A stretch of DNA of 64,000 bases from an uncultured Oscillospiraceae bacterium (GCA_964459985.1 CAYWOS010000007.1:17920-81919), one strand, 5' to 3'. Positions 57,997 to 61,800 are shown, counted from the first letter of the stretch. Translations and numbers: made by a program. The notes: a model not told the origin generated them from the letters alone.

Positions 57997-58902
57997 TCAG
58001 CCGATCTTGGCGCTTTCGCAGCCGTACCCGATCAGGGCGGCAAGCCAGCGCGCTTTGACGGCGTCCGTCGTCATGTCGTGCGAAAGCATGTCCTCCTCCG
58101 CGCGCCCCACGCGCGCGCCCTTTTCCCTGCCCATGTTGTGATACGCCATGATTTCGACGCCCTCGACGGCGGGCGTCCGCGCCGCCAGCGCGGCGATGCC
58201 GCGCAGATGCTCGTCGGAATCGTTGACGCCCTCGATCAGGGGGCAGCGCAGGATAATCCGCGCGCCCTGATCGTTCAGCCGTCGCAGGTTGTTGAGAATC
58301 AGATCGTTGGATACGCCGGTCAGCCGCCTATGCGCCTCGGGAGAAGTCGCCTTGTAATCGTAGAGGAACAGATCGGTCACGGACGACGCGCGCGCCATGT
58401 CCGCCCACGGCGCGAAACCGCTCGTCTCCATACACGTATGGATGCCGCGCGCGCGGCAGGCGGCCAGCAGCGCGACCGCAAACGCGGGCTGCGCCATCGG
58501 CTCGCCGCCCGATACCGTCACACCGCCGCCCGAGGCGTCGTAGTACGCCCTGTCAGCCTCAACCGTTCGCAGGATTTCGTCGACGTCCGCGCGCCTGCCG
58601 ACCACCTTCAGCGCGCCCGCCGGGCAGCGCGCGGCGCAGCGCCCGCACGCGGCGCATCGGTCGCGGTCGATCAAATGCCCGCCGCCTTCTATGCGGTGCG
58701 CGCCGACGGGACAGGCGTCCGCGCAGCGTCCGCACACTACGCACGCGCGCGCGTCATAGGACAATTCGGGCGCGGGATTCCACGATTCGGGATTGTGGCA
58801 CCACGCGCAGCGAAGCGGACAGCCCTTCAAAAAGACGGTGGTGCGCACGCCCGGCCCGTCCTGAAACGAACAGCGCTGGATATCGAAAATCACGCCGCGC
58901 AT
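57997..58902 (-). CDS. glycyl-radical enzyme activating protein (radical SAM, with two extra ferredoxin-like clusters)
   Basis: 301 aa. [12 protein letters not shown] (Cx3Cx2C), [12 protein letters not shown] and [21 protein letters not shown]. Confidence 0.85.
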
Positions 58903-58970
58903 GGCATCCTCCCCGCAAAGATCGCGCGCCCCGCCGTCGGCGCGGCGCGCCGCGCAAAAGCCCCGTCAAG

Positions 58971-59026
58971 CAGCCCGCGATCAGCCGTTCAAGCCCGTCA
59001 GCCCGCGATCAATCAGCCCGTGATCG
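58971..59026. repeat. three direct copies of a 12/13-mer in the GRE-activase spacer
   Basis: CAGCCCGCGATCA at 58971-58983 and 58999-59011. CAGCCCGTGATCG at 59014-59026. A related AAGCCCGTCA lies at 58991-59000. Confidence 0.6.
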
Positions 59027-59058
59027 ATTCCCCGCGAGAAACACCCCGCGTTCCGCAA

Positions 59059-61245
59059 TCAATACAGCGTCCGCGAAAGCACTTCCTGCTGCACGTCCTT
59101 TTCCAATTCGACAAACCGCGCCGAAAAGCCGCCCACGCGCACCAGCAGGCTCCGATACCTGTCCGGCTCGGCGAGCGCGTTTTCCAGATCGCGCCGACCG
59201 ACGACGGTGATCATCGCCTGCGTGCCGCCCCCGGCGAAATAGGCGTCCGTCAGCGCGCGAACCTTGTCGGGCATCTGCGCAAACAGCGCGCGGGAGAACT
59301 TCATGTTCTGCACCGCGCCGGCGTGGTGCTCGCAGGGCAATTTCAGGATGGAATTGAGCATGGCGGTCGGCCCGTTTTTGTCCATGCCGCCCGTCGGGTT
59401 GACGGCGTTCGCCATGAACGCGCGCGCGCGGCGGCCGTCGGCGGAAGCGCCGGTGAACCGGCCCAGATACGTGTTGGCGGAATTGTTGATGACCACCATC
59501 AAAAAGGACGAAAGCCCCACGCGCGACGCCTGCGCGCGGATGGTGTCCGCCATGAAAACATGCAGATCTCGCGCGATATCGTCGACCTGATCGTCGTCAT
59601 TGCCGAACTTGGGCGCGGCAAGCAGCAGCGCGCGCTCCGCCTCATACCCGACGAAATCGTTCGAGAGCGCTTTAAGCAGCCGATCCTTCGATACGGAACC
59701 GTCGCGGTACACGCATTTCCTGATGGCGGCGAGGCTGTCCGTCGCGTTAATGTTCCCGTACGATTCCAGCGTCGCGCCCAGCCCGTCGATACCGCCCGAC
59801 AGCATTCCGCGCCCGCGCTCGACGCAGCCGTCGTACAAAAGGCTCATCATCAGGAAGGGCGCCTGTTTCGCCGTTTCGGTCAGGATACATTGTTCGACCT
59901 CGGCGAGCCGCTCGATATAGTGCGTCAATTGGCGCTTGTACGCGGCGTACAGCTCGTCAAAGGTGTCAAACGCCTCGAGCCCGCCCGTTTTGATCCCCAT
60001 ATCGCGCCCGAACAGCAAATCCTTGCCGTCCGTCAGGGTGACTTCGAGCGCCTTGAGCAGATTGATGACGCCGTTGGGCGAACCGAAGGATTTGTGATCG
60101 ATGATGTACTCGCCGCAGCCGAAGGGCACGTACTGCTCGGCGGTTTCGCGCGGCAGCCCGAAGGCCTCCATGACGGCGGGGACGTTCACATCGTCGTTGT
60201 AGAGCATGGGATAGGTCGCGCCCGTGCCGATGACGGCGTACGCCTTGTCAAGCAGCGCGGGGGACTGTCCATTGTAAAAGCGCAGAGACAATTGCGGCTC
60301 GATGTCGCGCACGCGCGACGCCGCTTCCATGCACAGCATGGCGGCGCGGTCGGCGGCGGCGCCGTTTTTACGTCCCATGCCGCCGATGATGACGCGGCCG
60401 TGATACACCGTTTTCCGCGCCACCATGAGCCGAAACAGCCCGCACAGGCACTCGAGCGCGCATTCGTCGTCCGTATCGTCGGTCAGATACGGCGCGAGGA
60501 GATCGTCCAGCCGCCCGTAATCCATCACGCCGGCGAGACAGGCGTACAGCCACATCAACTGGATCGCCTGCGAAAGCGTTCGCGGCGCGTGATCGGCGAT
60601 ATACCCAAGGTCCTCCGCCATGCGCGTTTTGCCGAGCGCTTCTGCCTGCGCGGCGTATGCGAGGCAGCAGTCGCGCACGAGCGAAACGACCTCGCGCAGC
60701 GCGTCGTACAGGCCTTCCTCGGCGTCTTGATTGCTCTTCGCGCAGGCGTCGATCCTGTCCGCCAGCCCGTTCAGCCCCAGCGACATCAGTTCCTCAAAAT
60801 TGAGGTACGCGCCCGTCATGCGGTAGAGCGGGAAGGCGACGCCCACGTCGCCCGCGAACGAATCGGACGGCATCGCCTCGCGCACGGCGTCGGAAAACGC
60901 GCGCTTGACGTGCGCGGTGGTGTTTTCACGCTCCCAGAACGCCATCGCGTCCCCGATCTCGCGCGCTTCCTCCGGCGAAGCATCCTCAAGCGCTTGCTCA
61001 AACACGTCGCGGCGATAGAAAAATCCCATGCCGTGCGGCAGGCTGTACAGCGTTACGTCGGGCGAAAAGCCCACGCCCGCCCATTCCATTTTGAGCGTGC
61101 GGCCGGCGAACAAATCGCCTTCCTCGATGGCGGGCAGCATCGCGGGATAGATCGCGCGCAGCGCGCGCGCCTCGCGCAGAGGCGGCGGCAGACGCCAACT
61201 CTCCCGGCAGACCTTCGTAAACGCAAGCTCGAATTCAAGCGGCAT
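59059..61245 (-). CDS. glycyl radical enzyme (PFL-fold), short form, Cys-x-Glu eliminase-type active site; substrate unknown
   Basis: 728 aa. C-terminal glycyl-radical motif LLVRVGGFSARF (Gly706, nt 59128-59130). Thiyl loop VPFGCGEY (Cys377, nt 60115-60117, Glu379). Other GRE blocks: GTGATYPMLYNDD, GASADGRRA, NPTGGMDKNGPTAMLNS, NMKF. AAAGGAG RBS 12 nt after the cupin gene stop. Confidence 0.85.
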   Translation of the reverse strand: MPLEFELAFTKVCRESWRLPPPLREARALRAIYPAMLPAIEEGDLFAGRTLKMEWAGVGFSPDVTLYSLPHGMGFFYRRDVFEQALEDASPEEAREIGDAMAFWERENTTAHVKRAFSDAVREAMPSDSFAGDVGVAFPLYRMTGAYLNFEELMSLGLNGLADRIDACAKSNQDAEEGLYDALREVVSLVRDCCLAYAAQAEALGKTRMAEDLGYIADHAPRTLSQAIQLMWLYACLAGVMDYGRLDDLLAPYLTDDTDDECALECLCGLFRLMVARKTVYHGRVIIGGMGRKNGAAADRAAMLCMEAASRVRDIEPQLSLRFYNGQSPALLDKAYAVIGTGATYPMLYNDDVNVPAVMEAFGLPRETAEQYVPFGCGEYIIDHKSFGSPNGVINLLKALEVTLTDGKDLLFGRDMGIKTGGLEAFDTFDELYAAYKRQLTHYIERLAEVEQCILTETAKQAPFLMMSLLYDGCVERGRGMLSGGIDGLGATLESYGNINATDSLAAIRKCVYRDGSVSKDRLLKALSNDFVGYEAERALLLAAPKFGNDDDQVDDIARDLHVFMADTIRAQASRVGLSSFLMVVINNSANTYLGRFTGASADGRRARAFMANAVNPTGGMDKNGPTAMLNSILKLPCEHHAGAVQNMKFSRALFAQMPDKVRALTDAYFAGGGTQAMITVVGRRDLENALAEPDRYRSLLVRVGGFSARFVELEKDVQQEVLSRTLY

Positions 61246-61257
61246 GGCGGCGCTCCT

Positions 61258-61800
61258 TTACTCGTCGATCTTCGGCGCGCGCACGATGCGCGGGTCGGTG
61301 AACACGTCGGTTTCATCATGGCTGGCGGTGGAGAATTCCGATACGATCGCGCCCTCCGCGCCGCCCTGAAACCAGTGTTTGGTGTCGGGCAGCATGGTAT
61401 ACTGCTCGCCCGGCGTCAGAATGATCTCGTGGAAAACGGTGTAGTACGCCCCGTCGCCCTCGGGCGGGCGCGCTGCGGGCGCTTTCGCCGCCTCGCCGTC
61501 GACATACAGATAGACCTTGCCGGCGCGGCAGCGGAAGGTTTCCTGCTTGCCGGGCACGCCGTTCAGGGTGGGATGCGCGTGCTCGGGGCACGTCTGCCCG
61601 GGGAACAGCGCCAATTCCTTGGCGCAGCAGCGCGGAGTATTGACGTAGGTGATCAGCTCAAGCCCCGTCCTATCCAGATCGGCCAGCCCGAAATCCGCCA
61701 CCTCGACGCGCGATTTTTCCTCGTCCGTCAGCGCGATGCCGGCGTTGTCCATCATGGCGAGAAAGCGCGCGCGCGCGCGTTCATAGGTTGCTCTGTCCAT
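61258..61800 (-). CDS. cupin sugar isomerase, D-lyxose/D-mannose ketol-isomerase family (YdaE-like)
   Basis: 180 aa. [45 protein letters not shown]...[17 protein letters not shown] matches my recollection of B. subtilis YdaE / E. coli O157 D-lyxose isomerase. Confidence 0.75.

Follow-up and report, generated by a model that had tools for sequence, protein, structure and literature searches.

Which reaction is catalysed by a glycyl-radical enzyme (GRE) whose gene directly follows that of a free-sugar isomerase? This question was raised by a 64,000-nucleotide stretch of DNA from an uncultured Oscillospiraceae bacterium (GCA_964459985.1 CAYWOS010000007.1:17920-81919; "the window"), whose minus strand encodes, in series, a cupin-type isomerase, an unusually short GRE and a GRE-activating enzyme. 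An earlier note on this DNA (the original prediction) had read these genes as parts of a radical pathway acting on a sugar or a sugar-derived compound, and that reading was found to be broadly right, with qualifications. At a probability of about 0.5, cupin, GRE and activase would form a working, cytoplasmic, oxygen-sensitive module for sugar catabolism, in which the GRE represents a clade without characterised members and the isomerase connects its reaction to central metabolism.

Identity of the glycyl-radical enzyme

Open reading frames (ORFs) for all three proteins were found at exactly the positions predicted. The cupin stop lies 12 nt ahead of the GRE start (gap 61246-61257), and a 156-nt spacer separates GRE and activase. 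Ribosome-binding sites were recognised in AAGGAG, 7 nt upstream of the GRE ATG, and in AAGGAGA upstream of the cupin ATG, while the GC content of the three-gene region (~0.65) was the same as that of its surroundings. The genes for cupin, GRE and activase are real genes of the window.

The GRE matched the Pfam families PFL-like (PF02901; 331.5 bits, E 1.6e-98) and Gly_radical (PF01228; 71.5 bits, E 1e-19). A radical-glycine motif, RVGGFSARF, was present at residues 703-711 (radical Gly706) and the thiyl loop, FGCGEY, at residues 375-380 (thiyl Cys377, with Glu379). Gly706, Cys377 and Glu379 aligned with catalytic residues of glycerol dehydratase (GD), choline trimethylamine-lyase (CutC) and Escherichia coli YbiW and PflD, and Gly706 and Cys377 were invariant in all 81 family sequences; Cys377 corresponds to Cys433 of GD, whose catalytic residues are His164, Cys433 and Glu435 (June-2026 review). 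An AlphaFold (AF2) model (pLDDT 82.8, pTM 0.86) showed the GRE fold, and Foldseek comparison with 50 GRE chains matched all PFL2-type structures about equally well (TM 0.82-0.86, identity 19-26%). Barrel and glycine domain, catalytic positions and a dedicated activase place the protein in the PFL-like superfamily. Identification as pyruvate formate-lyase (PFL) was rejected: the loop reads Gly-Cys-Gly-Glu, as the original prediction had noted, with no Cys-Cys pair, and alignment with PFL was confined to residues 544-727 (74 bits).

The protein did not cluster with any characterised GRE. Among solved GREs, GD gave the best score (239 bits), followed by CutC (228 bits), propanediol dehydratase (207 bits), YbiW (200 bits), PflD (169 bits), IslA (143 bits) and 4-hydroxyphenylacetate decarboxylase (HPAD; 99 bits, C-terminal third only). 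Identity to all characterised GREs was 21-28% (24-28% for the best matches). Family members in other phyla, by comparison with the 239 bits of GD, scored at least 700 bits. The GRE also fell below every curated NCBIfam cut-off, including those for the PFL2/glycerol-dehydratase subfamily (TIGR01774; 303 versus 678 bits), CutC (255 versus 1050), HypD (232 versus 1100), HpsG (216 versus 1000), HpfG (211 versus 1000) and PflD-type enzymes (NF007437; 200 versus 1109). Judged by these comparisons, the GRE is without a close characterised relative.

Missing loops and conserved pocket residues

The GRE had been described as about 60-120 aa shorter than the dehydratases. In alignments at 24-28% identity, this difference was traced to three pocket loops and to ~26 N-terminal residues that are present in GD, YbiW and PflD. 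The loop with the general-acid histidine of GD (His164) aligned to a gap, with an invariant FPLYR motif in its place. Six residues were missing from the 'ESNGHS' loop, where the 'hsispa' segment of GD is an insertion, and the 'GYPMYQN' loop was missing altogether (13 residues relative to YbiW), the 'gy..pmyq' segment of GD likewise being an insertion. All of GD His164, Ser282 and Tyr339 fell within these absent loops; Ser282 and Tyr339 are pocket residues of GD. The enzyme thus combines the Cys-x-Glu of the dehydratases and other eliminases with scores below their curated cut-offs and a pocket that is without their loops.

Residues Cys377, Glu379, Gly706, Arg142, Arg284, Glu494, Tyr496, Ile586, Asn587, Asn588, Asn591, His641 and Asn647 were invariant in 81 of 81 sequences, across all clades, as was the FPLYR motif; Y141 likewise belongs to the invariant residues specific to the family. 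Glu494, Tyr496, His641 and Arg142 are family-specific. The pocket, as located by alignment, would be polar, with many Asn, Gln, His, Tyr and Arg residues, and its conservation in all 81 sequences suggests that all members share a single type of substrate.

Cupin isomerase and activating enzyme

The cupin scored 33.2 bits against Lyx_isomer (PF07385; cut-off 20.8) and aligned end to end with two solved D-lyxose isomerases, those of Thermofilum sp. (7NZO; E 1e-64) and Bacillus subtilis (YdaE, 2Y0O; E 4e-63), with which it shares a short size of ~180 aa. The HxH...E...H positions were the same as in both enzymes, and CPEHxHP, QETFRC and HWFQ were kept. On hidden-Markov-model score, full-length similarity and metal positions, the cupin is assignable to the Lyx_isomer family, in agreement with the D-lyxose/D-mannose isomerase originally predicted. 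A genomic partnership with a GRE, such as the window cupin has, was found described in no paper for the 7NZO and 2Y0O enzymes in a full-text literature search.

The activase scored 338 bits against NCBIfam TIGR02494 (cut-off 174) and reached the cut-off of none of the substrate-specific activase models. Its Radical_SAM and ferredoxin-type Pfam domains, a CX3CX2C motif (CPLRCAWC; Cys28/32/35) and two ferredoxin-like 4Fe-4S motifs corresponded to the cluster composition that had been predicted.

Gene neighbourhoods of related enzymes

Neighbourhoods were compared in 81 loci, which included a window clade (18 loci), a Lachnospiraceae-type clade (16) and an Ignavibacteria-type clade (40; Table 1); Lyx_isomer genes were counted within 8 kb of the GRE. 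Carbohydrate genes, predicted as neighbours in the window, were present there and in each of the 80 related loci. The activase adjoined the GRE in 74 of 81 loci, its placement varying among close relatives (opposite strand in L082; none within 8 kb in L001). A Lyx_isomer gene occurred in 26 of 81 loci, and its short and long subfamilies, found in different clades, were only 27% identical. The association of cupin and GRE is real and limited to certain clades.

Table 1. Occurrence of gene families near the GRE in three clades of related loci
Gene family	Window clade	Lachnospiraceae-type	Ignavibacteria-type
Short Lyx_isomer	15/18	0/16	1/40
Long Lyx_isomer	0/18	10/16	0/40
PfkB kinase	13/18	1/16	1/40
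ROK kinase	5/18	11/16	0/40
Amidohydro_2	6/18	9/16	1/40
GH38	4/18	8/16	0/40
GH92	0/18	0/16	13/40
GH13-like	8/18	5/16	1/40
GH10-like	8/18	0/16	3/40
~720-770-aa protein without Pfam family	11/18	0/16	0/40
AraC regulator	6/18	0/16	31/40
Gfo/Idh/MocA	0/18	2/16	18/40
PhyH	0/18	0/16	16/40
SMP-30 lactonase (SGL)	0/18	0/16	15/40
Aldo-keto reductase	0/18	0/16	14/40
Nucleoside-hydrolase-like	3/18	0/16	11/40
Xylulokinase	0/18	4/16	6/40

An alpha-mannosidase of glycoside hydrolase (GH) family 38 or 92 was encoded in 25 of 81 loci, distributed over all three clades, and at times within the GRE operon itself (GRE-AE-SGL-GFO-GH92 in the Ignavibacteria-type clade; GRE-SIS-GH38). Neighbours scoring above curated cut-offs comprised ribokinase, allose kinase, D-allulose-6-P 3-epimerase, RpiB and xylulokinase (588 bits). 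Among the PfkB neighbours tested, those of the window clade exceeded the ribokinase cut-off and the Lachnospiraceae-type one did not (239 versus 299.65 bits); the ROK neighbours tested exceeded the allose-kinase cut-off. RpiB and a D-allulose-6-P 3-epimerase-type gene were found in both Bacillota clades. Directly after the activase, genes of two unrelated families were encountered, SGL in the Ignavibacteria-type clade and Amidohydro_2 in the window clade, the latter Pfam match being weak (24 bits, below the 26.4 cut-off). This exchange looks like a non-orthologous replacement of a lactonase-type step. It is also possible that aldo-keto reductase and Gfo/Idh/MocA proteins replace the cupin as a two-step conversion of aldose to ketose, a pattern confounded by phylogeny. 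Taken together, the loci place the GRE robustly within cytoplasmic sugar catabolism, alongside mannosidases, aldose-ketose isomerisation, free-sugar kinases and enzymes of pentose-phosphate type.

No BMC-H homologue was detected in the window and 92 related loci with an approximate PduA sequence as query, which agrees with the predicted absence of microcompartment shell genes. The same 92 loci contained no homologues of FsaA/B, YbiV or GldA, and the eleven loci with Pfam gene tables no phosphotransferase system (PTS) gene. Nor was a conserved aldehyde dehydrogenase, reported earlier as missing near the GRE, or a 1,3-propanediol dehydrogenase seen in the loci.

Several further proteins were observed in these neighbourhoods. 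A ~720-770-aa protein without a Pfam family (L084:5989-8301; L092:4926-7091), whose gene shares an operon with that of the Lyx isomerase or lies beside GH106, faintly resembled the trimerisation domain of GH42 and the GH151 fucosidase 6TVK and is, on this sequence similarity, probably a novel glycosidase of clan GH-A. Genes resembling PhyH-type Fe/2-oxoglutarate dioxygenases occurred at L038:6186-6944 and in 15 other loci of Ignavibacteria-type anaerobes or facultative anaerobes; to find a dioxygenase beside an enzyme sensitive to oxygen is odd. In Limnochordia, the gene for a 164-aa cupin (Ureidogly_lyase/DUF4867-like; L088:9504-9998) stops 3 nt ahead of the GRE; the operon also contains genes for a Zn-ADH, an AP_endonuc_2 TIM barrel and a DUF4432 protein, a GH10-like gene and GH106. 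This cupin was considered as a Lyx_isomer and rejected, as it was not detectably related.

Proposed reaction and alternatives

For substrate class, cleaved bond and sequence of steps we infer the following. With S-adenosylmethionine and a reduced 4Fe-4S cluster, the activase would place a radical on Gly706, which would move to Cys377. The Cys377 thiyl would then take a hydrogen atom from a hydroxyl-bearing substrate carbon and Glu379 would deprotonate the hydroxyl, yielding a ketyl radical that would break an adjacent bond before Cys377 gives the hydrogen back. Homology makes C-O cleavage the default reading, and the broken bond would most probably be of this type (dehydration, or opening of an ether or ring). 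The substrate is probably a free manno- or lyxo-configured sugar derivative; candidates are an unphosphorylated aldose, ketose, alditol, anhydro-alditol, or aldono- or urono-lactone or acid. Co-encoded glycosidases would free this compound inside the cell, and the Mn-cupin isomerase, interconverting aldose and ketose, would link the GRE reaction to the sugar kinases and to enzymes of the pentose-phosphate pathway.

Several observations weigh against this proposal. C-O elimination always gives a deoxy product, for which a D-lyxose isomerase, xylulokinase, RpiB and RPE are not obviously needed, and no conserved downstream aldolase or aldehyde-handling gene was found in the loci. Absence of the GD His164, 'NGHS' and 'PMYQ' loops means that a classical elimination of a hydroxyl group is not assured. 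The Cys-x-Glu loop, which had been taken as the arrangement of eliminases, is indeed present but is no proof of that activity, as it also occurs in GRE isomerases and in the decarboxylase HPAD (Cys503/Glu505). Assignment of the GRE as an eliminase is consequently not secure. The triad of cupin, GRE and activase is conserved in Bacillota clades only. The cupin was absent from the locus of a 76%-identical GRE relative (GH13-GH13-like-hyp201-GRE) and present in only 1 of the 40 loci of the largest, Ignavibacteria-type clade. Finally, neighbours were called by tblastn and crude ORF clustering on contigs of metagenome-assembled genomes, many of them incomplete.

In other readings the GRE would make or consume a free aldose directly. 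That it belongs to a new class with such a reaction, either hexuronate decarboxylation or conversion of an aldose to a 2-deoxy-aldonolactone, is conceivable but doubtful. The former could be a radical C5-decarboxylation of D-mannuronate or L-guluronate to D-lyxose; the latter, by abstraction of H1 and loss of the 2-hydroxyl, would account for the Bacillota clades having a lactonase but no dehydrogenase. We know of no precedent for either reaction among GREs. A pentose-forming radical decarboxylase, removing C6 of a hexuronate, is unlikely, although it would draw most neighbours into one linear route: D-mannuronate or L-guluronate, for example, would be opened from the 6,3-lactone by the adjacent lactonase-type enzyme and decarboxylated, and either the cupin or the pair of aldo-keto reductase and Gfo/Idh/MocA would turn the resulting D-lyxose into D-xylulose, to be phosphorylated and enter the pentose-phosphate pathway, giving roles to Lyx_isomer, xylulokinase, RPE-like, RpiB and ribokinase neighbours. 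The family also has a second invariant Glu, E494, with invariant R142 and R284, and HPAD too combines Cys-x-Glu with a second catalytic Glu, Glu637 of HPAD being a possible counterpart of E494. However, known GRE decarboxylases all act on arylacetates, HPAD itself on an aromatic substrate, and HPAD aligns with the window GRE in its C-terminal third only, the nearest sequences and structures being those of eliminases and isomerases. Polysaccharide lyase and uronate-pathway genes were not seen in the loci, nor, in those inspected, was a gene for the HPAD small subunit, at which no search was aimed; the mannosidase association would be left unexplained.

The only sugar-acting GREs named in the June-2026 review are YbiW and PflD (8ID7, 8ID0), GRE isomerases identified in 2024 as C-O lyases of 1,5-anhydroglucitol-6-P and 1,5-anhydromannitol-6-P; with these, the earlier statement that sugar-derived GRE substrates are poorly explored no longer holds. 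A similar C-O lyase in the window would open a 1,5-anhydro-hexitol ring to a 1-deoxy-ketose, possibly after phosphorylation by a neighbouring ROK or PfkB kinase. The shared Cys-x-Glu, the fold (TM 0.83 to YbiW, 8ID7), sugar-catabolic loci and the kinases in them fit such a role, but it is improbable given an identity of 28%, the NF007437 score, retention in YbiW and PflD of the His loop (replaced here) and of the long loops, and the fact that a 1-deoxy-ketose cannot serve a D-lyxose isomerase as substrate. Gene context differs as well: the loci of YbiW and PflD encode PTS uptake together with an Fsa aldolase, of which, with YbiV and GldA, the searches above found no trace, whereas loci of the window family combine ATP-binding cassette (ABC) or major-facilitator uptake with genes for free-sugar kinases, for Lyx isomerase and of lactonase type. 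Dehydration of a small diol, glycerol or 1,2-propanediol released as aglycone by the GH13-like or mannosidase enzymes, is very unlikely. GD (Clostridium butyricum, 1R8W) and propanediol dehydratase (5I2G, 9RCO) are the best matches in sequence and structure, sharing a ten-stranded barrel (TM 0.84-0.86), radical Gly, Cys-x-Glu and a dedicated activase with two extra clusters. Nevertheless, identity is only 24-25%, the TIGR01774 score is below its cut-off, the loops with His164, Ser282 and Tyr339 are missing, and shell genes and conserved aldehyde or 1,3-propanediol dehydrogenases were not found; CutC likewise shares the Cys-x-Glu, and there are no cut or microcompartment genes here. It is also improbable that cupin and GRE are neighbours without a common pathway, the cupin sending mannosidase-derived mannose to glycolysis while the GRE acts elsewhere. 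Absence of the cupin from 55 of 81 loci, including that of the 76%-identical GRE, would agree with this, and conversion of mannose to fructose requires no radical step. Yet two Lyx_isomer subfamilies were recruited beside the GRE in two clades, spacing is tight outside the window too (16-23 nt by tblastn in L001 and L015), and by our estimate Lyx_isomer is far rarer than 26 copies per ~1.3 Mb of flanking sequence.

Organization of the window

Features of the window are listed in Table 2. The three genes of the module are preceded upstream by a small gene without a Pfam family and a GH13-like gene, while downstream a convergent pair of plus-strand genes separates them from a glycosidase operon.

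Table 2. Features in and around the GRE operon of the window
Feature	Coordinates	Strand	Basis or context
Cupin, D-lyxose/D-mannose-isomerase type, 180 aa	61258-61800	-	ORF, Pfam, alignment to solved enzymes
GRE, uncharacterised short-loop clade, 728 aa	59059-61245	-	ORF, Pfam, NCBIfam, alignments, AF2 model
Radical-SAM GRE-activating enzyme, 301 aa	57997-58902	-	Pfam, NCBIfam
GRE-activase spacer, 156 nt, with CGGGCTGA / GATCGCGGGCTG-like direct repeats	58903-59058	-	Sequence reading
Small secreted/lipoprotein-like protein, 201 aa, without Pfam family	61871-62476	-	Between GH13-like gene and cupin, co-oriented
GH13-like glycosidase gene, open at window edge	62531-64000	-	Pfam; upstream, co-oriented
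ROK-family regulator (context only)	56038-57171	+	Convergent with activase
CutC-family ('copper homeostasis') protein (context only)	57168-57917	+	Convergent with activase
ABC-transporter/GH18/GH29/GH38 operon	46602-55822	-	Beyond ROK and CutC-family genes

The GH13 neighbour of the original prediction was recovered as GH13-like: the Pfam match was weak (54-65 bits), and regions I-IV with catalytic Asp/Glu/Asp were recognisable by eye. Because the gene runs to the window edge, its 476-aa ORF is incomplete, ~200 N-terminal residues lying outside; relatives of 679-693 aa have an extra N-terminal domain. Among the 81 loci, 14 from two clades carry such a gene as well. An apiose connection was considered and dropped, as a precomputed 'Apionate_lact_C' match on the GH13-like neighbour was not reproduced by Pfam; the paper on the E. 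coli apiose cluster does not mention a GRE.

The 201-aa protein belongs to a ~200-aa secreted or lipoprotein-like family without a Pfam entry, with the motif EQGPVWYYL...WGDNWQxSE. Homologues were encoded directly upstream of the GRE in L001, L082/L083 (L082:2993-3598) and L034; in an Atribacteria genome (L094:7586-9804), three copies stand in tandem upstream of the GRE.

A GH38/GH29/GH18 locus of N-glycan type had been named as a neighbour and is present, with GH38 confirmed by Pfam, and GH29 and GH18 read from motifs only (HHDGF and DGVDIDWE). Its link to the GRE is circumstantial, because the ROK regulator and the CutC-family gene, which overlaps the regulator stop by 4 nt, lie between them on the plus strand. 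The same ROK-CutC pair ('copper homeostasis') flanks the GRE in Logan contig L081.

A plus-strand ORF of 1254 aa over the GRE operon (58078-61842) was dismissed as a high-GC antisense artefact. Elsewhere, ORFs at 36807-39950 (-; 1047 aa) and 34220-35479 (+; 419 aa) had no Pfam match, and both are overlapped by a long ORF of the other strand. No credible Rfam match was found in 55500-64000, and the GRE-activase spacer, without an Rfam family, folded no better than shuffled sequences (z-score -1.25, not significant).

Distribution and implications

Relatives of the GRE were found in 245 species (one genome per species) from at least eight phyla: Bacillota, Ignavibacteriota, Bacteroidota (including Rhodothermales), Kryptoniota, Calditrichota, Cloacimonadota, Acidobacteriota, Chloroflexota and Atribacterota. 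Cultured hosts of family loci are Anaerotaenia torta DSM 100431 (L022), Rosettibacter primus (L040) and Lachnospiraceae CE91-St56 (L045), while L051 comes from a metagenome-assembled genome assigned to Melioribacter roseus. In a library of 1.84 billion proteins clustered at 50% identity, 1356 clusters matched at E <=1e-30. The best 150 of these 1356 spanned 740 to 255 bits without a break, each of them outscoring the best characterised GRE. A clean family boundary by score was therefore rejected, and in the absence of a gap the family was delimited by its motif signature, which holds to ~36% identity. Beyond this lie other short-loop GREs with different pockets (P0202, P0207, P0208, P0231, P0264 and P0266; 27-35% identity); in P0264 and P0266, GCNQ or GCSQ takes the place of GCGE, so that the Glu is absent. 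As far as these sequences indicate, short-loop GREs of ~700-770 aa with several different pockets, the window GRE among them, constitute a large uncharacterised sector.

The full-text literature search found no published work on this clade or on the pairing of a GRE with a lyxose isomerase. The June-2026 review gives no function for such a protein and lists whole GRE clades as still without validation, so that uncharacterised clades are to be expected and surprise is limited. In the library clustered at 50% identity, no fewer than 150 clusters lie closer to the window GRE than any characterised GRE does. The clade is a good experimental target, its novelty moderated by the sugar substrates established for YbiW and PflD in 2024.

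Once a reaction is assigned, the annotation would extend to relatives in at least 245 species of anaerobes from gut, digesters, sediments and the subsurface. Sugars from mannose-containing glycans could prove to be processed by a new route that does not depend on oxygen, and the existence of D-lyxose isomerases, despite the rarity of D-lyxose in nature, might find an explanation. If the doubtful possibility of a GRE class acting on free aldoses proved true, it would explain the lactonase-type genes after the activase, supply a physiological role for the enigmatic D-lyxose isomerase and represent an unrecognised anaerobic route of sugar metabolism across these phyla.

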